In this document: positions 658-17,035 of the stretch, piece by piece
Layout of the letters: every line of letters starts with the position of its first letter
How positions within the stretch are numbered: the stretch's first letter is position 1
DNA from: a virus
Reading direction: 5' to 3' (one strand)
Virus record (IMG/VR): IMGVR_UViG_3300042887_004758
Span: 1-64,000 of that record
DNA: 64,000 nt
The notes under the pieces: generated by a model
Told to the model about the DNA's origin: nothing
The model's input: the letters and a program-made list of their open reading frames with translations, nothing else
Databases searched by the model: none
Position numbers and translations under genes: made by a program

Positions 658-716
658 TTTTTTTATAAAAATATATGTAAAAAAAATTCAATAGACAAAT
701 TATTTTGAAAAAAAAG

Positions 717-790
717 TGACCCCTATGGGATTCGAACCCATGACTCTCACATTAAAAGTGTGATACTCTAGCCAGCTGAGTTAAGAGGTC
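717..790 (-). tRNA. tRNA-Lys(TTT)
   Basis: Cloverleaf GACCTCT/AGGGGTC, anticodon arm TCACA-CT TTT AA-TGTGA, T-loop TTCGAAT; no encoded CCA. Confidence 0.95.
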
Positions 791-797
791 ATTAATA

Positions 798-1082
798 TCA
801 ATCCCGACAATGATATTTGATCAATACTCGGACATCTTCCAAATTCCGATATTTGTTTGCGATCTCATCTGCCTTAGCGGATGCTTCTTCAGGTGAAGAA
901 TTCATGATAGAAGAGAAACCTACATTATATGAATATTCATATTTCGGAAAAACAGAGTTACTTTGAACCTTACGACTTTTGAGACCATCGGAATAACTTA
1001 CTTTCTTACCCAACGCATTGTAGATAGATCGTTTGCGAGGAGAACAAATCTCAACAGAGTAGAAATCAAAAAGGTTTTCCAT
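798..1082 (-). CDS. hypothetical protein (94 aa)
   Basis: ORF preceded by TATATTTG host-type promoter element (~1103-1110). Confidence 0.7.
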   Translation of the reverse strand: MENLFDFYSVEICSPRKRSIYNALGKKVSYSDGLKSRKVQSNSVFPKYEYSYNVGFSSIMNSSPEEASAKADEIANKYRNLEDVRVLIKYHCRD

Positions 1083-1172
1083 ATCGGTTTTCTTCAGTGA
1101 AACAAATATACAACCAATTCACCGAATTACCAAATATTTTAAAGAAAAGGAAGAGTTCTTTTGTTTATTTAT

Positions 1173-1538
1173 TTATTCACCCATTATGATTGACCCATAA
1201 CGATTAGTCAATCGGTTTTCTAGTTTATCTAATCTACTGTCCAAATCACGATTAAAGTTCATCTCAACTTCATCGATTCGTCTGTGAAGGTGATCTTTTG
1301 ATAAGTCAAGCTCACGAGACAAATCATCAACAACTTCTGAAACACGTCTATCCATCATTTCACGATCACGAGCATAGTTGGAATGATCGTATGACATTTG
1401 TTCTCTTATGTCATCTATTTCTTGTTGTTTTTCTTGCAACAATTTGATTTTTTTGTTCACGGAAACTAAAAACACTATCAAACCAATAAAACCTGATAGT
1501 ATCATACCCCCCACGAAATTTAATAATTCTATTGTCAT
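1173..1538 (-). CDS. membrane-anchored coiled-coil protein
   Basis: N-terminal hydrophobic helix followed by heptad-rich charged region. Confidence 0.7.
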   Translation of the reverse strand: MTIELLNFVGGMILSGFIGLIVFLVSVNKKIKLLQEKQQEIDDIREQMSYDHSNYARDREMMDRRVSEVVDDLSRELDLSKDHLHRRIDEVEMNFNRDLDSRLDKLENRLTNRYGSIIMGE

Positions 1539-1575
1539 TTTTTAAATTTTTTTAATGTCAAAGAACTCTTCCTTG

Positions 1576-1648
1576 TCGAGAAAGCGAGACTCGAACTCAC
1601 AACTTCTGCGTCCCAAACGCAGCGCTCTACCAATTGAACTATTTCTCG
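1576..1648 (-). tRNA. tRNA-Pro(TGG)
   Basis: Acceptor CGAGAAA/TTTCTCG, anticodon arm CTGCG-TT TGG GA-CGCAG. Confidence 0.95.
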
Positions 1649-1658
1649 ATATAACTTG

Positions 1659-1738
1659 TGGGGGTAGATGGACTCGAACCACCGAACCGTTAGGAGCTGA
1701 TTTACAGTCAGCCGCAATTGCCACTATGCGATACCCCC
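1659..1738 (-). tRNA. tRNA-Tyr(GTA)
   Basis: Acceptor GGGGGTA/TACCCCC, anticodon GTA, long variable arm. Confidence 0.95.
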
Positions 1739-1743
1739 AAAAT

Positions 1744-1846
1744 GACCGTTTTTTCCCCCATTAGCCCACCCAAGAGAGGGACCTTGTGATGGATTTTAGT
1801 TCAGGAAGTCTGACAGGGTTTCCCCCATCAGACCGTTACCACGGAC
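1744..1846 (-). ncRNA. unclassified structured RNA in tRNA transcript
   Basis: GC-rich island with 11-bp hairpin GTCTGATGGGG-GAAA-CCCTGTCAGAC (1808-1833) and partly complementary ends. Confidence 0.45.
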
Positions 1847-1850
1847 AAAC

Positions 1851-2561
1851 CTACCCACTTACAACACCAATCATAAAATAATTTTCCTCGTAGATCAAGT
1901 AATTACCAACGGGCAAAGCATCAATTAAAAATAATTTATTTTCCAACATCAATTTCATCGGCATTTCTTTAACTTCTGTATGACCCACGACTTGAATATA
2001 TTGATCATTCAAAAAAGTATTTTTATTTCCCGACATCAAACTTCTTGGACGAATCCAAATCGGTGTTTGCATGATATCATCACCTGTTGGATCAAATATT
2101 CCGTTGAATTCAAAATTTCGTGGTTTGTATTTCCAAATTTCATTTACAAAGTTAGAGATAGGTTCTCCTTCCTTGTATCTATTTTGATTTACCAACCAAT
2201 CATAACCAATACCCGCATGTGAACACAAGATATTATCCATCTCATAACACATTTGAAGGTGGTGTAGGTTTTCTTTAATAAGAAGTTGAATTGCCGGTCC
2301 TGCACTCCGTTGAAATCCACTATACACTTCGTAAGTGTTGATATAATGGAAGTCATGATTACCAATCAACATAATAACCTCACATTCACCTTTTTCTTTG
2401 AACTCAATAATTTCCTTGAAATTATATTGTTGCTCTGCTGATCCAATGTCGAAACTGTCAAAATAATCCCCGATGAAAACAACCCGATCAGGTTTTTCAC
2501 TTTCTACGATTTTTTTCCATATGTCTCGACCATGAATATCTCCGATAAAGATTGTTTTCAT
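1851..2561 (-). CDS. calcineurin-like metallophosphoesterase
   Basis: Motifs GDIHG, GDYFD, GNHD, HAG, GHT. Confidence 0.9.
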   Translation of the reverse strand: MKTIFIGDIHGRDIWKKIVESEKPDRVVFIGDYFDSFDIGSAEQQYNFKEIIEFKEKGECEVIMLIGNHDFHYINTYEVYSGFQRSAGPAIQLLIKENLHHLQMCYEMDNILCSHAGIGYDWLVNQNRYKEGEPISNFVNEIWKYKPRNFEFNGIFDPTGDDIMQTPIWIRPRSLMSGNKNTFLNDQYIQVVGHTEVKEMPMKLMLENKLFLIDALPVGNYLIYEENYFMIGVVSG

Positions 2562-2577
2562 TAGTTTATTATTTTAG

Positions 2578-2675
2578 TAGTCAGGACAGGACTCGAACCT
2601 GTACGTATAGGATTAGCGCGTAGCCTATACACATCTTATTTGAGGAGTGCGTCTAACCAATTCCGCCACCTGACT
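2578..2675 (-). ncRNA. tRNA-like RNA (Leu-type D arm, degenerate anticodon arm, long extra arm)
   Basis: Acceptor AGTCAGG/CCTGACT, T arm ACAGG-TTCGAGT-CCTGT, D arm GGCGGAATTGGTTAGACGC; no canonical 5-bp anticodon stem. Confidence 0.75.
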
Positions 2676-2681
2676 GTGTTT

Positions 2682-2885
2682 TTAGTCTTTAAACTCTCGA
2701 TAAACAAACATGAAAAAACAAATGTAACTAAGGGTCAACCCACCCACTAGAGAGTATCTGATTAGCTCGTGAAGTAGGGTACCGTCGAGTGGCACATCCC
2801 AAAGGATACAAGTTAAAAAAACAATAAATGACAGGATGAAGAGTGTGAGTGATGCAAATCCTGTGATGTTGATTAGTTTTTTCAT
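2682..2885 (-). CDS. small two-TM membrane protein
   Basis: 67 aa, two hydrophobic segments. Confidence 0.65.
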   Translation of the reverse strand: MKKLINITGFASLTLFILSFIVFLTCILWDVPLDGTLLHELIRYSLVGGLTLSYICFFMFVYREFKD

Positions 2886-2913
2886 AGTGATTCAGATAAT
2901 TTTTATTTTTTTG

Positions 2914-2987
2914 CTCTCCCTCTTGGGCTTGAACCAAGGACCTATTGATTAACAGTCAACCGCTCTAACCGACTGAGCTAAGGGAGA
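2914..2987 (-). tRNA. tRNA-Asn(GTT)
   Basis: Acceptor TCTCCCT/AGGGAGA, anticodon GTT. Confidence 0.95.
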
Positions 2988-2991
2988 AAAA

Positions 2992-3084
2992 GGGTCGAGT
3001 TCAACACGCCAGGAAGGGCCCAACAAGCCTCTTTCACTGAAGAGGAAGGGCCCAACTAGCCTGTAGGTGAAGAACTTTCGACCT
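2992..3084 (-). ncRNA. rod-shaped pseudo-symmetric structured RNA
   Basis: Two copies of AGGCTWGTTGGGCCCTTCCT within a long fold-back closed by GGTCG/CGACC. Confidence 0.65.
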
Positions 3085-3087
3085 GTA

Positions 3088-3160
3088 AGAAGGAGACGAG
3101 ATTCAAACCCGCGACCATCAGATTGGAAGTCTGACGATCTACCAACTGAGATATTCCTGC
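3088..3160 (-). pseudogene. degenerate tRNA-Gly(TCC)
   Basis: Anticodon arm intact (TCC) but two acceptor mismatches, broken D stem and TTTG T-loop. Confidence 0.7.
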
Positions 3161-3165
3161 AAACG

Positions 3166-3238
3166 AGCCTCTAGACGGACTCGAACCCCCGACCCGCTCA
3201 TTACAAATGAGCTGCTCTACCAACTGAGCTATAGAGGC
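3166..3238 (-). tRNA. tRNA-Thr(TGT)
   Basis: Acceptor GCCTCTA/TAGAGGC, anticodon arm GCTCA-TT TGT AA-TGAGC. Confidence 0.95.
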
Positions 3239-3244
3239 AAATAG

Positions 3245-3318
3245 TCCTCCCACTTGGATTTGAACCAAGGACCTACGGTTTATGAGACCGCCGCTCTAAC
3301 CGATTGAGCTATGAGAGG
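3245..3318 (-). tRNA. tRNA with CAT anticodon, probably Ile2 (lysidine-modified)
   Basis: Cloverleaf with CAT; paired C1-G72 (not initiator), C4-G69, A73; TilS gene nearby. Confidence 0.85.
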
Positions 3319-3340
3319 GTTTTTTTATTATTCCGATACT

Positions 3341-3361
3341 TCAAAGAACACCACAAAGATA
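3341..3361 (-). promoter_or_regulatory. Bacteroidota-type -7 promoter element plus boxA-like motif
   Basis: TATCTTTG followed by GTTCTTTGA, ahead of the tRNA run. Confidence 0.7.
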
Positions 3362-3385
3362 TGAATTTTGGATTAATTAACCAAA

Positions 3386-3799
3386 TTAAACTAAACCTTT
3401 TTTCAGTACTTCTGAAACTAATTCTATATTCATTTCGGGATTGTGTTCCTCTCTATGACAATTCGAACAAAGGAGTTCACATTTTAAAAATTCTTGATTT
3501 ATGTAATCAATATTACGATTAGAAAGTATCCTCATATCTAATTTGGATTCTTTTTGTGTTGGATCAATATGATGAAATTCTAATGCCGCTATATTTTTAT
3601 TATAACCACATCTTTTACAAGATCCTCCAGCTTGTTCAATCAAGGATAGTTTTCTACGATAAGCCCTAATTGTTTGAGAATGATACGTATTTGTTTGTTT
3701 TTTTAATCTATGGTAGTGATGTTTTTGTTTACAAGCGCCAGAACAATACATTTTTTTTTGACCAGATAATTCAATATCACATACTATACATTTTTTCAT
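3386..3799 (-). CDS. HNH endonuclease with Zn-finger N-terminus
   Basis: CxxC...CxxxC; CxxCG...FHHIDP...LLCSNCHREEH. Confidence 0.85.
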   Translation of the reverse strand: MKKCIVCDIELSGQKKMYCSGACKQKHHYHRLKKQTNTYHSQTIRAYRRKLSLIEQAGGSCKRCGYNKNIAALEFHHIDPTQKESKLDMRILSNRNIDYINQEFLKCELLCSNCHREEHNPEMNIELVSEVLKKGLV

Positions 3800-3807
3800 G
3801 TTTTTAT

Positions 3808-4425
3808 TTATAAATATACAGTATTATGTTTTTGTTCATAATCCTTGATCATTTTTTTCACGACAGTTTTAAGACCGGGGTTGACCTTTAGAAGTTCGGG
3901 AATAATATTATGTCTGATTCTATTTCTTGAATATTCCACCGAGTTATTTGATTCGTCTTGAATAAAAGGTACATTTTTCCTTTTACACCAACTTTCGAAC
4001 TCAGACTTTTCAGTCAAAAGAAAAGGACGAATAACATTTTCCTTACGATAAGGGATGACCGATTGAAACCCCCTCGTCATAGTGAAAATATATGTTTCTA
4101 GACAATCATCCAAATGGTGACACGTTACGATTGGAAAATCAAATGATCTAAAAAACTTATACCTCAAATCAGACCACACCTTTTCCTTGTTGGATTTTGG
4201 TTTTTGATCCGTCCTTCCAACAAACAAACTCAAACCGTTTTCCTCACAATATTTGGTGATAAACTTTTCAGCATCATCACCGTGTTCTGTATTGTGATTG
4301 AAATAAAGGACGTGTGGATTATAATTTGATCTTCTCAAAAAATCCAAGACGGCCATAGAGTCAACCCCTCCCGAACAAGCAAGACCAAATTCAGAGGTTG
4401 GAATATTTCCGAGTACTTTGATCAT
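3808..4425 (-). CDS. tilS: tRNA(Ile)-lysidine synthetase (short, catalytic domain only)
   Basis: PP-loop SGGVDS, HHLDD, RP.L, D.SN...RNRIRH; start reset to 4425 because the longer ORF overlaps tRNA-Ser. Confidence 0.9.
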   Translation of the reverse strand: MIKVLGNIPTSEFGLACSGGVDSMAVLDFLRRSNYNPHVLYFNHNTEHGDDAEKFITKYCEENGLSLFVGRTDQKPKSNKEKVWSDLRYKFFRSFDFPIVTCHHLDDCLETYIFTMTRGFQSVIPYRKENVIRPFLLTEKSEFESWCKRKNVPFIQDESNNSVEYSRNRIRHNIIPELLKVNPGLKTVVKKMIKDYEQKHNTVYL

Positions 4426-4440
4426 AACATTATTTTTTTG

Positions 4441-4528
4441 TGGAAGGTAAGGGATTCGAACCCTTGCATCAGTTTCCCGACCTAGCGGTTTAGCAAACCG
4501 CCCCCTTCGGCCTCTTGGGTAACCTTCC
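4441..4528 (-). tRNA. tRNA-Ser(GCT)
   Basis: Acceptor GGAAGGT/ACCTTCC, anticodon GCT, long variable arm. Confidence 0.95.
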
Positions 4529-4537
4529 AACTTATTG

Positions 4538-5098
4538 TCACAATATAAGAACCGGTTGATTCAAATATTCGATCAATAAGGTTTTAACTTCGGAATTACA
4601 AATTCCATTTTTGTGATCTGTTGACAAAACAAAATGTTCCAAACCCCACCCTTGTTCTCCAAGTCTCATATCATCGATTGCTACCCATGATGCGACGTAA
4701 GGATGATTGTCCAACCATTTTCTGATTTCCAAAACTCGGGTTTGGTTTAACCCAAGACCCATCTTAAATTCGAACTCAGGTGGAACTTCACTTCGATCGA
4801 TGAAAGGGGTAAAACCGATTGGTTTTTTGATGATCCCCTGACTTTCATAATATTCACCGATTTCTTCCAAAGTTGCCCATGTTCTCCAATCAGAAGAAAT
4901 TACAATCTCACAATCGGTGTCCCTGATGACCTGATTCAGACATTCAACACAACTATGATTGAAGTTGTCAAACCTATCCAAGATTGGGATTTCTTTGATG
5001 GTGGGGCGTGGATCATATTTTTTTTGTTTATCGAATCTTGAACCCCATTCAGATTCCAAACAGATCACACCATCGTGATCCATAAAAATTACTTTCAT
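4538..5098 (-). CDS. HAD-family phosphatase (Swiss-Army-Knife RNA-repair-type HAD)
   Basis: FMDHDGV, ISSDWR, AIDD motifs; start reset to 5098. Confidence 0.85.
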   Translation of the reverse strand: MKVIFMDHDGVICLESEWGSRFDKQKKYDPRPTIKEIPILDRFDNFNHSCVECLNQVIRDTDCEIVISSDWRTWATLEEIGEYYESQGIIKKPIGFTPFIDRSEVPPEFEFKMGLGLNQTRVLEIRKWLDNHPYVASWVAIDDMRLGEQGWGLEHFVLSTDHKNGICNSEVKTLLIEYLNQPVLIL

Positions 5099-5116
5099 TT
5101 GTTTTAATTGTTGCGG

Positions 5117-5202
5117 TAGCCGGAGCGGGGATCGAACCCGCACGGACCCTTCGGTCCATTTGATTTTAAGTCAAACATGTATACCAATTTCATCATCCGG
5201 CC
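5117..5202 (-). tRNA. tRNA-Leu(TAA)
   Basis: Acceptor GGCCGGA/TCCGGCT, anticodon TAA, long variable arm. Confidence 0.95.
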
Positions 5203-5311
5203 ATGATTATTCCGATATGTCAAAGAACACCCAAAACATACAACAAATCTTCTGAAGTTTCAACCCCTCCCTCTATTCTATATTTTTGGGGAGGGGAGAG
5301 GAGCCTACTAT

Positions 5312-5632
5312 TTAGTAGGCGTCCATCTCATCAATCACGTAAGCCACGTTTACGTTTACCTTGTCTTCGTGGTTTCGGATGTCCACAATGAACCCACCCA
5401 TCCCGAAGTTGGTCACTCCTTCCTGTTCGTAGGAAGTGAATGCTTGGTTCATCACGACGGTGGTATAGTCCTTGAGTGTTTGGACGTTGAAAGAGTCGGG
5501 TGACACTTCCAACCAAGAAGTATACATCGCCTCACGGTTCAGAGCCTTTACGACCTTCGCTACGGTTTCGTAGTCGAAGTTGTTGGTTACACGGCCAATC
5601 CGGTTTTGGGGGTTGGAGATGACGTTTTTCAT
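5312..5632 (-). CDS. hypothetical protein, likely highly expressed early gene
   Basis: GC3-richer codon usage; TACCTTTG promoter element upstream; hairpin downstream. Confidence 0.75.
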   Translation of the reverse strand: MKNVISNPQNRIGRVTNNFDYETVAKVVKALNREAMYTSWLEVSPDSFNVQTLKDYTTVVMNQAFTSYEQEGVTNFGMGGFIVDIRNHEDKVNVNVAYVIDEMDAY

Positions 5633-5736
5633 GGTGTGATTGTTTTAACACCACAAAGGTATGGCAGGAGATTGATCTTTCCAAATCTTGATGTGACTTT
5701 TTTCGATCTACGTAAATTAATCTTTAACTGAAGGTA

Positions 5737-6711
5737 TTAATATTCTTCAGGTTTTTCAAAATGTATCACTTCACTACCTCCAGGACCTACTTCATAGTTT
5801 TTATTAGGGAAAACATATACCTTACCACCTATTTTTGCATAAACAATATAATCAATACTTTTACTCTTATAGTCGTTCTTCATACCATAAGTTTTAACAA
5901 AATATTTACCGTCTTCTACGAGGAGTTTAGATAAAGGTTTTATTTGAAAACTCTGACCCCCAATAATCATGTCTATTGATTTGTGTCGGTCAATTATAGA
6001 ACCAGGAGGAAACAACTCAACATTACCTGGTATATGATTAGAAATTACTTCTGAGGCGTATACCTCAGTATTATAACCATTTTCTATTGACCTCCATTGG
6101 ATATCCAACAACTCTTTCATAAAATCTTTGTCGTTTTTAAATACATCCACTAACCATTCCTCTAAATCTCCGTTACCTTCATTATTCCATTTTTGTGATA
6201 TTTTTCTTTGTACTTCTTTTTTTGTATCAAAATAATTCATAATTGACCATGACTCACCCTTACCCGTTCTCTCACCTATTGTATTTATATCTCTAATACC
6301 TGCGCTATATATTTCATCTTGTTCTTTCCAATTATTTGGAAACGCCTTTTTTAACGCACTCCTAATTAAAGTTGATTTTACTTCTCCACTATCCTTACTA
6401 CCGAACAAAATTTTACGAATATCAGGTTTTATTTCTTCAAGTTTCCAATAGTCAACGTAACCCGATTCTCCATTTTTCGTAAAATTAAAATCTGTAGGAG
6501 TAATACCTGTCAACTTAATATTATTTCCAATCAAATTTATATATGTATTTTTACCATGTGAATATTGGCCTTCTTCGGTTTTTAAGTCGTTGAAGTATAC
6601 CCTCCACGGAGCGTATGTTGGTTTATAAGCCCTCATATAACTAAAACTAAAGGTTACAGGACCGTCACCTGAAGTTAATTCTTTTAGAATTTTGCGTATT
6701 TGCTCTCTCAC
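5737..6711 (-). CDS. putative PD-(D/E)xK nuclease-domain protein
   Basis: C-terminal E...ID-x8-QIK motif; N-terminal IRKILKE; TATTTAT upstream. Confidence 0.5.
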   Translation of the reverse strand: MREQIRKILKELTSGDGPVTFSFSYMRAYKPTYAPWRVYFNDLKTEEGQYSHGKNTYINLIGNNIKLTGITPTDFNFTKNGESGYVDYWKLEEIKPDIRKILFGSKDSGEVKSTLIRSALKKAFPNNWKEQDEIYSAGIRDINTIGERTGKGESWSIMNYFDTKKEVQRKISQKWNNEGNGDLEEWLVDVFKNDKDFMKELLDIQWRSIENGYNTEVYASEVISNHIPGNVELFPPGSIIDRHKSIDMIIGGQSFQIKPLSKLLVEDGKYFVKTYGMKNDYKSKSIDYIVYAKIGGKVYVFPNKNYEVGPGGSEVIHFEKPEEY

Positions 6712-6809
6712 GTAAATAAATATTCCTAAATTAAGAAATGTTTAATCAAACCTTTTATCCCACAAACTAAAGATTTGTGGGTTTTTCGGTGGAGTTAATA
6801 AAACAAATG

Positions 6810-6881
6810 CGGTCTATGAGGGTTCCGACCCCTCTACTCCTGCGTGACAGGCAGGTATGATAGCCACTTCACCAATAAACC
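6810..6881 (-). tRNA. tRNA-Asp(GTC)
   Basis: Anticodon arm CCTGC-CT GTC AC-GCAGG; atypical T-loop GTCGGAA. Confidence 0.9.
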
Positions 6882-6885
6882 TTTG

Positions 6886-6959
6886 TACTCGGTACGGGAT
6901 TCGAACCCGTGATTTCTTCCGTGAAAGGGAAGCGTCCTAAACCACTAGACCAACCGAGC
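6886..6959 (-). tRNA. tRNA-Glu(TTC)
   Basis: Acceptor GCTCGGT/ACCGAGT, anticodon TTC. Confidence 0.95.
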
Positions 6960-6977
6960 ATTAATTTAGTTATATAT

Positions 6978-7069
6978 AAGTGTGGGTGAGAATCGAACTC
7001 AGACTCTCCGAATTTCTCCGAAGTTGGGAAACCAACCCGCCTTTGTTTATTTGTGGTCATGCCCACACC
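6978..7069 (-). ncRNA. tRNA-like RNA (acceptor and T arm, no D or anticodon arm)
   Basis: GGTGTGGG/CCCACACT stem, TGAG-TTCGATT-CTCA T arm, two short internal hairpins. Confidence 0.65.
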
Positions 7070-7084
7070 TAATATATAACATTG

Positions 7085-7155
7085 TTTCCCCATCAGGACT
7101 CGAACCTAAAACCACGGAACCAAAATCCGTTGTATTACCATTATACTATGGGGAA
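7085..7155 (-). tRNA. tRNA-Gln(TTG)
   Basis: Acceptor TTCCCCA/TGGGGAA, anticodon TTG. Confidence 0.95.
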
Positions 7156-7156
7156 G

Positions 7157-7230
7157 TGGAGGTCGGAACTGGATTCGAACCAGTGTTGAATCTTTTGCAG
7201 AGATTCACCTAACCACTCGGACATCCGACC
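7157..7230 (-). tRNA. tRNA-Cys(GCA)
   Basis: Anticodon GCA, U73, encoded CCA. Confidence 0.95.
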
Positions 7231-7234
7231 TTAT

Positions 7235-7310
7235 TGGCACGTCAGGTAGGACTCGAACCTACAACTTTCGGTTTTGGAGACCGACGCTCTACCAATTGAA
7301 CTACTGACGC
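7235..7310 (-). tRNA. tRNA-Trp(CCA)
   Basis: Anticodon CCA, G73, encoded CCA. Confidence 0.95.
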
Positions 7311-7316
7311 ATTTTG

Positions 7317-7417
7317 AAGTCAGGACAGGATTCGAACCTGCAATGTGGCCTCGTAAAGAGGATCATACCTTTTCGACTTACCGAGCTTGAGCCCGCTTAC
7401 ATATCCACTACCTGACT
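7317..7417 (-). ncRNA. tRNA-like RNA, same acceptor/T-arm family as 2578-2675
   Basis: AGTCAGG/CCTGACT acceptor and GCAGG-TTCGAAT-CCTGT T arm; unrelated interior. Confidence 0.7.
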
Positions 7418-7424
7418 ATTTTTG

Positions 7425-7496
7425 AGCAATGGATGGGATTCGAACCCACAACATCCAGTTTGGAAGACTGGAACTCTACCATTGAGCTACCATTGC
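7425..7496 (-). tRNA. tRNA-Gly(TCC)
   Basis: Acceptor GCAATGG/CCATTGC, anticodon TCC, U73. Confidence 0.95.
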
Positions 7497-7513
7497 TTTT
7501 TTTTCCTCATATA

Positions 7514-16590: not shown

Positions 16591-16646
16591 AGTACAAATA
16601 TAAAAATAAATCCCCAACTCTCAAAATAATCGGGGATTATATTTAG

Positions 16647-17035
16647 TGAAGGCGGGCGGACTCGAACCGCCGTCCCTAGTATCTCAAACAGAGAGTACTA
16701 CACGTTTAGGTCATTATTAATTCACAATAATCCGAAATATCTGAATTCTCACACCGTTCAGCCACGGTGGTAATACTTAAGGAGTACCACATCCTTTGGT
16801 TATTAAGGTAACCAACCTTCAGTGGACTTCTGTTCATAGGTGTATGTCCTGACCGACCCGTAGGTTTTCGGAGCCTTAGGCTACGTAAACCTCTTCAGTT
16901 TGGATCAAACCAATAGACTGAAGTTTTGCGAAAGTTTCGCCAGTTGTTTTTGAAACCGTAGATTAAAGTGATAGATCTCGTCTCACTACGTGCACTCTGT
17001 GCCTGACCATACCGGTCAAATCCAAAATCGCCCCC
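16647..17035 (-). ncRNA. ssrA: tmRNA
   Basis: 5' GGGGGCGA...GGATTTGAC; 3' T arm GGCGG-TTCGAGT-CCGCC; G3-U70; tag ORF 16941-16876 GETFAKLQSIGLIQTEEVYVA*. Confidence 0.92.

Follow-up and report, generated by a model that had tools for sequence, protein, structure and literature searches.

The element described here is a rod-shaped RNA encoded on the minus strand at positions 2992–3084 of a 64,000-nucleotide stretch of viral DNA (the window), which makes up the first 64 kb of the 109,981-bp IMG/VR virus record IMGVR_UViG_3300042887_004758. The rod lies in a cluster of tRNA genes, is a structure at the RNA level on the tRNA strand, and is under purifying selection. The explanation that we consider probable is that the rod is an RNA gene belonging to an uncatalogued family of ~65-nt hairpins of giant phages, within which it is a lineage-specific form with an internal duplication and extended stems; it is most likely a passenger RNA gene that is excised by tRNA processing.

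Repeat structure and fold of the rod

An earlier note, made from the sequence of the window alone, had reported a 20-nt unit occurring twice within 93 nt and a single-rod fold for the RNA. The two copies of the unit, which lie 32 nt apart and read AGGCUAGUUGGGCCCUUCCU and AGGCUUGUUGGGCCCUUCCU on the minus strand, are identical at 19 of 20 positions (95%), and in 2000 shuffles of the 100-nt spacer that contains the rod the best match between 20-mers was never above 16 of 20. The predicted fold was likewise reproduced, with the two GGGCCC words paired, two 6 × 2 internal loops, a cap, and a closing helix; its minimum free energy (MFE) of −40.9 kcal/mol compares with −28.0 ± 3.3 kcal/mol for shuffled spacers (z −3.9; 1 of 200 shuffles as good), and its paired part spans exactly the interval from 2992 to 3084 that had been proposed for it. 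From the base upward, the rod consists of a GGUCGA/UCGACC helix, a CAGG/CCUG helix, a helix in which both GGGCCC words pair together, flanked by a CUAGUU × UU loop and a UU × CUUGUU loop, and a CCUCUU/AAGAGG helix capped by the loop CAGUGA. The core of the rod is two-fold pseudo-symmetric. Its parts are as follows.

2988–3087 (−): rod spacer, 100 nt between the pseudo-tRNA-Gly and tRNA-Asn, with a 4-nt 5′ lead and a 3′ U-run
2992–3084 (−): paired rod, 29–32 base pairs in four helices (MFE fold)
3043–3062 (−): unit 1, AGG-CUAGUU-GGGCCC-UU-CCU (repeat search)
3011–3030 (−): unit 2, AGG-CUUGUU-GGGCCC-UU-CCU (repeat search)
3016–3053 (−): core common to the wider hairpin family, GGGCCC-UU-CC-cap-GG-CUUGUU-GGGCCC (covariance model R2)
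3028–3045 (−): cap hairpin CCUCUU-CAGUGA-AAGAGG (MFE fold)
3054–3059 (−): outer 6-nt internal-loop strand CUAGUU, facing UU at 3014–3015, at the position where the family has UUMAAAA opposite G
3022–3027 (−): inner 6-nt internal-loop strand CUUGUU, facing UU at 3046–3047, equivalent to the CUWGYU loop of the family
2988–2991 (−): U-run from the rod base to the first base of tRNA-Asn, 4–6 U across homologues

The rod is present in single copy in the 110-kb record, as judged by a covariance model built from rods (R1). Within the window sequence alone the plus strand folds equally well, and the strand was therefore settled by comparison of homologues. The computed rod homodimer, at −90.2 kcal/mol against −81.8 kcal/mol for two monomers, shows a modest gain that decides nothing. 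The sequence GCCCUUCCUCUU might pair with the 3′ end of tRNA-Asn, a lone 12-nt match.

The earlier reader had not recognized an RNA family, and a search of Rfam 15 agrees: nothing reached the gathering score on the rod, and nothing relevant appeared even at E ≤ 10 over positions 2560–3330. A 5S-like or signal recognition particle-like RNA was rejected on the same grounds, having no Rfam match, and a tRNA or tRNA relic was rejected because the rod has no T arm, T-loop, or cloverleaf, with 2988–3087 called neither by ARAGORN nor by the Rfam tRNA model.

Homologues of the rod and selection on its structure

Rods were found in six phage or metagenome records (the window, L066, L092, L094, L104, and L105) that together hold five distinct rod sequences. 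The sister contig L066, whose phosphoesterase protein is 98% identical to that of the window, was reached via the phosphoesterase gene neighbouring the rod, and a scan of metagenomes gave the other four. All six records contain a block of pseudo-tRNA, rod, and tRNA-Asn, and the DNA on either side of this block differs among them. The earlier note had proposed comparison of homologues as a check, and the rod is indeed kept in all six records with the same fold, at 92–97% identity to the window, compared with 53–77% for the pseudo-tRNA, which has an 8-nt deletion in its T arm in four homologues. In L105, the most distant genome, tRNA-Asn is 92% and the phosphoesterase gene 76% identical to the window, and by Fisher tests the rod differs from the pseudo-tRNA with p 1.5e-4 and from the phosphoesterase gene with p 5e-7. 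Selection on the rod is thus stronger than on the adjoining dead tRNA and at least as strong as on tRNA-Asn.

Each of the five distinct sequences adopts an identical minimum-energy rod, in which 145 of 145 pair cells are standard. The 12 substitution events among them include none that breaks a pair, being confined to loops, to C-to-U changes opposite G, and to conversions of a mismatch to a pair; in simulation, 12 random substitutions spared every pair in only 0.02–0.2% of runs. Three changes fall in Watson-Crick pairs and all are C-to-U opposite G, while pair 26–84 is C·C, C-G, or G-C and pair 8–100 is A·C, A-U, or G-C, depending on the rod, and the third position of the outer CUAGUU loop strand is A or U among homologues. 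The stem changes produce G-U on the minus strand only and would be A·C on the plus strand, and four of the five rod sequences fold more stably in the minus sense (for example, −44.4 versus −35.9 kcal/mol in L094). Because the G-U changes are strand-specific, the pairs are preserved, and the minus-sense fold is more stable, the rod is an RNA-level structure on the tRNA strand that is maintained by purifying selection.

Further rods were sought by pattern in several collections. In IMG/VR, a pattern for the paired units returned collagen-like repeats only and no further rod, a single-unit pattern returned only the known sister contig, and patterns for the outer stem and the cap returned chance matches, those for the outer stem lying in coding sequence. 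No rod was found by pattern search in 185,579 GTDB species genomes, and neither the rod nor the canonical hairpin of the family described below was found among INPHARED phages. The neighbouring phosphoesterase gene has 4132 homologues, and the rod is absent from the phage loci related through that gene (L067–L072). In other phages with a near-identical tRNA-Asn, the place of the rod upstream is taken by tRNAs, open reading frames (ORFs), or an unrelated hairpin. The last of these is in a freshwater phage (L120:4305–4402, minus strand), where a homologous tRNA-Asn is preceded, at a distance of 5 nt, by an unrelated hairpin of ~81 nt whose closing stem has 13 bp (z −3.2); behind a tRNA-Met, this contig carries a canonical GGGCCC hairpin as well. 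Different passenger hairpins can therefore occupy the position upstream of tRNA-Asn, as they do in L120 and in the rod records. In L092, the tRNA-Asn adjacent to the rod (L092:270–476, minus strand) is interrupted by an insertion of ~200 nt in the anticodon loop; it is not called by ARAGORN, and the insertion is intron-like, with an Rfam group I match below the gathering score.

The pattern of substitution bears on two other readings of the rod. One is that it is a decaying relic of a redundant unit of tRNA-Gly and hairpin, in which the tRNA died and a slipped duplication scrambled the hairpin; the rod would then be functionless, appearing conserved only through the closeness of the genomes. 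The rod does adjoin a pseudo-tRNA that is decaying differently in different lineages, its known distribution is one small clade, and it has lost the invariant A-rich loop of the wider family. A relic is nevertheless improbable, as the rod evolves several-fold slower than both the adjoining pseudo-tRNA and a coding gene in the same genomes, all 12 of its substitutions are structure-neutral and strand-specific, extra base pairs have been gained in three lineages, and the block has been retained while its surroundings were reshuffled.

The other reading places the function in the DNA, with the direct repeats as protein-binding sites, for instance the arm sites of an integrase next to an attP core resembling a tRNA, or with the rod as a mobile hairpin resembling a miniature inverted-repeat transposable element (MITE). 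Two 20-bp direct repeats 32 bp apart beside a tRNA fragment, inverted ends of the form GGTCGA...TCGACC, and pyrimidine-rich words flanking both sides would all suit such an element, but the G-U substitutions are confined to the transcribed strand, helices outside the repeats are maintained, no integrase was found in the 110-kb record, and the rod is single copy per genome, with none in the species genomes searched, in other metagenome contexts, or elsewhere in IMG/VR. We give a DNA-level element very little credence. Its mobile form is contradicted by the finding of a single copy in each genome and of the same locus every time, and attP arm sites were rejected in view of the lack of an integrase in the 110-kb record and of the evidence for RNA-level selection.

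Three further candidates were tried and set aside. CsrA-binding or Shine-Dalgarno-like GGA motifs on the plus strand are on the wrong strand by the G-U evidence, and the lengths do not fit a mimic of CRISPR repeats. A ToxI-like type III antitoxin would consist of tandem repeats of ~34–45 nt with a ToxN/AbiQ toxin; at the rod there is no array detectable by Tandem Repeats Finder (TRF), 20 of each 32 nt repeat, and the rod is surrounded by tRNAs, a 67-aa membrane ORF, and the phosphoesterase gene.

A wider family of GGGCCC hairpins

In addition to the rods, covariance model R1 gave a weak full-length match in L132, an unrelated phage contig, where it follows a tRNA-Met. This match retains GGGCCC-UU-CC...GG-CUUGCU-GGGCCC, with a cap that is different but compensated and a different outer stem. 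A scan of IMG/VR with the core pattern returned 40 contigs, 39 of them new and one the sister contig. The members share a design of ~65 nt in the order stem, UUMAAAA, GGGCCC, UU, CC-cap-GG, CUWGYU, GGGCCC, G, stem, in which the outer stem has 6–7 covarying base pairs and the cap hairpin is variable in both sequence and length, with compensating changes. A U-run commonly trails the hairpin and is lacking in several members (L139, L140, and L143).

Among 24 distinct family sequences, the 17 pairs have 98.5% of their cells paired, and nine of them change on both sides; all seven pairs of the outer stem covary. None of 500 shuffles matched these values, and sliding the register reduced pairing to 17–54%. 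The UUMAAAA strand and the lone G opposite it are invariant in the same sequences, though neither was part of the search pattern. When the pattern instead placed no constraint on the helix, GGGCCC/GGGCCC was retained in 21 of 22 true matches, none of the matches covaried, and no alternative helix was seen. The exception, L174:2307–2353, has GAGCCC for GGGCCC with an uncompensated C·A mismatch, the sole helix change found. The family has no match in Rfam (five canonical members, E ≤ 0.1) or among cultured phages, and is widespread and uncatalogued.

The hairpins also have a usual place. In 20 of 25 family loci the core starts 14–18 nt past the end of a co-oriented tRNA (tRNA-Gly in 12, tRNA-Met in 6, and tRNA-Leu in 2), which places the start of the hairpin 2–3 nt behind the tRNA once the 7-nt stem strand and the 7-nt loop are subtracted. 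A second tRNA lies within 14–19 nt downstream in 13 loci, and in 16 of the 25 loci at least one side of the hairpin directly adjoins a tRNA-Gly. Hairpin-bearing phages have up to 26 tRNAs, with many junctions, and each of four near-complete genomes (288–311 kb, 92–100% complete) contains exactly one hairpin. This single copy per genome, together with stems that covary around loops and a helix that do not change, argues for a dedicated RNA gene with a sequence-specific partner and against a generic terminator or processing hairpin. Judged from the sequences, the invariant palindromic helix would fit sequence-specific, possibly symmetric recognition.

Such a cis-acting role, either as a leaky terminator or attenuator setting the output of tRNA-Asn and the genes downstream or as an RNase III-type processing or insulating hairpin, is possible for the rod and is a poor fit to the family. 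In all five rod homologues the G+C-rich base helix is followed after 0–1 nt by 5–7 U, and the interrupted duplex of ~30 bp could attract RNase III, an enzyme that processes the T4 tRNA precursor. A terminator, however, does not need loops and a helix of fixed sequence among stems that covary, the element occurs once per genome despite the many tRNA junctions available, and the U-run is missing from the three family members named above. At the rod itself, a terminator scan made no call, tRNA-Asn, the 67-aa ORF, and further genes follow without a promoter box of their own, and the 110-kb record yielded no phage gene for RNase III. We consider a cis-acting element unlikely for these reasons, though less so than a relic.

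Two features of the hairpin-bearing contigs may be recorded here. L132 (at 2632–2707) and L171 (downstream of the hairpin) contain tRNA genes with a UUA anticodon, reported by ARAGORN as 'tRNA-Stop', that would read UAA; these could be suppressors or could point to recoding of stop codons. L141 has a group I intron (602–818; RF00028, 75 bits) in its tRNA region.

Relationship of the rod to the family and origin of its symmetry

Covariance model R2, built from the 24 family sequences without any rod, matches the window at 3016–3053 on the minus strand (32.4 bits, E 1.1e-5; a local match to model positions 21–57) and finds the core in the same place in all rod homologues. The rod has the family core, GGGCCC-UU-CC-(cap hairpin)-GG-CUWGYU-GGGCCC with both GGGCCC words paired, and it shares the family's strand, its place, its single copy per genome, and its frequent U-rich tail: it lies directly behind pseudo-tRNA-Gly(UCC) on the same strand, 4 nt before tRNA-Asn. 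It departs from the family in three respects. The family's invariant UUMAAAA, facing a G, is replaced in the rod by CUAGUU facing UU, which makes a second CUWGUU × UU loop closed by GG/CC; its outer helices add ~17 bp, bringing the paired length to ~92 nt as against ~62; and its upstream tRNA is dead. As the rod obeys the family rule in standing behind a tRNA-Gly, albeit a decayed one, the dead tRNA has been dragged along in a conserved block.

In contrast to the core of the rod, the family hairpin is not two-fold symmetric, since its GGGCCC/GGGCCC helix is surrounded by one CUWGYU × UU loop and one UUMAAAA × G loop. The 32-nt spacing of the two units in the rod equals one period of the family core (6 + 2 + 6 + 6 + 6 + 6 nt), from which we infer that a partial tandem duplication, or else an unequal exchange at the two GGGCCC words, gave rise to the rod. 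As this word is palindromic, an event of either kind automatically yields a pseudo-two-fold rod. Most simply, therefore, the symmetry is historical, the product of internal duplication, and is not proof of a dimeric binder. The earlier note had taken it to suggest a dimeric protein or a kissing RNA; taken alone, the symmetry indicates neither, given a family with the same helix and no two-fold symmetry, and duplication is the simpler account; what stands of the argument is that an invariant palindromic helix fits symmetric recognition. Given its later conservation, the doubled form is in use.

Several observations weigh against this account of the rod as a functional, duplicated family member. 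TRF calls no tandem repeat on the rod, because only 20 of the 32 nt are still alike, so that the duplication is deduced rather than detected. The link to the family is a local match of 38 nt, and the outer half of the rod is without a family counterpart; with the invariant A-rich loop missing, the rod might have lost the function of the family. The rod homologues differ by no more than 8%, which makes covariation within the rod thin, with a single pair that is truly compensated. Exact patterns were used in the family searches, and the invariance of GGGCCC was tested only among matches retaining the other conserved words. Finally, no candidate partner protein was found: TROVE, RtcB, RNase III, class II aminoacyl-tRNA synthetase (aaRS), and TGT genes are absent from the 110-kb record, which represents ~36% of the genome.

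Genome setting and predicted release of the rod

CheckV estimates the record to be ~36% complete, corresponding to a full phage genome of ~300 kb. The G+C content is ~34%, and the phage encodes a T4-like terminase, portal, and major head protein, with the closest cultured terminase, from Flavobacterium phages, sharing just 28% identity. The virus is an uncultivated giant freshwater phage. Its tRNA island occupies bases 700–7500 and contains 14 tRNAs by ARAGORN and 16 by Rfam, every one on the minus strand, interspersed with a TilS-like PP-loop gene, a HAD_SAK_2 gene, the calcineurin-type phosphoesterase gene, and an HNH gene. On the minus strand, the rod is preceded by a promoter box, tRNA-Met(CAU), tRNA-Thr, and a degenerate tRNA-Gly(UCC), and is followed by tRNA-Asn, the 67-aa membrane ORF, a tRNA-Leu-like gene, and the phosphoesterase gene. 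The rod had been placed between tRNA genes, which is correct on its 3′ side, where tRNA-Asn is intact; its 5′ neighbour is the degenerate tRNA-Gly(UCC), which has acceptor- and D-stem mismatches, is not called by ARAGORN, and aligns as the decayed paralogue of the intact tRNA-Gly of the window at 7424–7496. The features of this setting are as follows.

3354–3361 (−): candidate promoter box TATCTTTG, upstream of tRNA-Met; likely start of the rod-containing operon
3244–3318 (−): tRNA-Met
3088–3160 (−): decayed tRNA-Gly(UCC) paralogue, directly 5′ of the rod (Rfam tRNA, 37.9 bits)
2913–2987 (−): tRNA-Asn(GUU), directly 3′ of the rod (ARAGORN and Rfam)
16644–17035: tmRNA (Rfam)

The −7 promoter box of Bacteroidota has the consensus TAnnTTTG, which we take TATCTTTG to fit, and the block holding this box is identical in four related genomes. 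By inspection of the sequence, no other Bacteroidota-type box occurs from 3354–3361 down to the rod, and tRNA-Asn, the 67-aa ORF, and the later genes downstream of the rod have none of their own. On the basis of established tRNA biology, the rod would be co-transcribed from the box at 3354–3361 with tRNA-Met, tRNA-Thr, the dead tRNA-Gly, and tRNA-Asn. The 3′ end of the rod, bearing a short U tail, would then be set free when RNase P cuts at the 5′ end of tRNA-Asn, and its 5′ end would arise as the pseudo-tRNA upstream either is processed at its own 3′ end or decays. The release by tRNA processing that the earlier note had envisaged agrees with the position of the rod, which is where such processing would free it. 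In genomes with a broken pseudo-tRNA the product may instead be ~170 nt long, and in a computed fold the rod still forms within this context of pseudo-tRNA and rod.

Once released, the stable RNA would act through its conserved parts. The functional determinant is probably the invariant palindromic GGGCCC/GGGCCC helix with the flanking asymmetric loop, UU opposite CUWGYU, whose partner would act in trans. The rod carries this GGGCCC and CUWGUU/UU module twice around a local dyad, so that two copies of a partner, or a dimer, could bind. A bolder proposal, which we hold only tentatively and think doubtful as it stands, is that these hairpins with their GGGCCC helix represent a new class of functional RNA gene in giant phages, present in single copy, whose helix is read symmetrically by a homodimeric protein or by a second copy of the RNA; if so, the rod would be a natural covalent two-site version, showing that the working unit is a dimer. 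It is also possible that the two conserved loops have a catalytic, self-processing role in maturation of the tRNA precursor.

The tRNA setting also raises the idea of an anticodon-loop decoy, an RNA that would titrate an enzyme reading such loops, whether a synthetase, a modification enzyme, or an anticodon nuclease with which the host defends itself. CUWGUU has GUU, the Asn anticodon, after CU, and CUUCC equals positions 32–36 of tRNA-Gly(UCC); tRNA-Gly genes accompany the family and tRNA-Asn accompanies the rod; and the TilS-like, HAD_SAK_2, and phosphoesterase genes of the island have the flavour of tRNA repair. These matches, however, are post hoc and only 3–5 nt long, the bases concerned lie in internal loops or helices and not in 7-nt hairpin loops, the adjacency to tRNA-Gly may be inherited synteny, and neither class II aaRS nor TGT was found in the 110-kb record. 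A decoy is accordingly very unlikely.

Other unusual elements occur in the same tRNA island. The TilS-like PP-loop gene (3808–4440, minus strand; PF01171, E 2e-32) is close to the tRNA with a CAU anticodon at 3244–3318 (minus strand), which suggests that the phage makes its own lysidine-modified tRNA-Ile2. A 98-nt tRNA-like gene at 2578–2675 on the minus strand of the window (Rfam tRNA, 37.4 bits) has a perfect acceptor stem and T arm, with 39 nt replacing the anticodon arm; its counterparts are L092:173–269, which ARAGORN calls tRNA-Leu(CAA), and the divergent L105:453–536, which it calls a tRNA with a 4-base anticodon (aagg). Two spacers of the island, 6960–7083 and 7311–7423 (both minus strand), fold strongly (z −5.4 and −2.7) and look tRNA-like, with AGUCAGG/CCUGACU acceptor stems, T arms, and odd cores; a similar element is present in a relative at L068:5723–5833 (z −3.7).

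Comparison with known systems

The classic precedents for the rod are RNAC and RNAD (stable RNA species 1 and 2) of phage T4, small non-coding RNAs that are encoded among phage tRNA genes in the same orientation and derive from tRNA transcripts (PMC3014915, PMC9697503). Like these, the rod is encoded between co-oriented tRNA genes without a promoter or coding frame of its own. Covariance models R1 and R2, however, match nothing in the T4 tRNA region, and T4 rnaC when folded ends in a tRNA-like T arm, which the rod does not have.

GOLLD and ROOL are structured RNAs, known from phages or environmental sequence, that are often found near tRNAs and are possibly co-transcribed with them (PMC5737381). 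Both are unrelated to the rod in sequence, size, and architecture, as is the freshwater-1 RNA (RF02979). An instance of freshwater-1 (L105:654–715, minus strand; 74 bits) lies ~100 nt downstream of tRNA-Asn in the most divergent rod contig, and catalogued orphan motifs therefore share these tRNA clusters.

Two further comparisons may be made. Y RNA and YrlA are ligands of Ro60-Rsr and occur in phages near tRNA-like modules; they resemble the rod in a closing stem formed by the 5′ and 3′ ends, beginning GGUCGA.../...UCGACC, in a bulge, and in a 3′ U tail. The Y_RNA and YrlA models, however, gave no match to the rod at E ≤ 10, the rod lacks a tRNA-like domain, and no TROVE (rsr) gene is present in the 110-kb record. 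The 3′ external transcribed spacer of the Escherichia coli glyW-cysT-leuZ transcript is a by-product of tRNA processing that acts as a sponge for small RNAs; it pairs with them through single-stranded sequence, whereas the rod is almost fully double-stranded.

Small RNAs embedded in phage tRNA clusters are thus a known kind of element, among which the rod is a doubled variant of an undescribed hairpin family. Such RNAs have been known since T4 RNAC and RNAD, and to our knowledge none yet has a function. The GGGCCC family is testable in this respect, with dozens of members, one per giant-phage genome, whose covarying stems surround invariant loops and a palindromic helix. The rod adds a natural variant that doubles one module and deletes the other, and the contrast between hairpin and rod shows which module is separable. 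If a partner were found, it would provide the first functional handle on the whole class of phage passenger RNAs.

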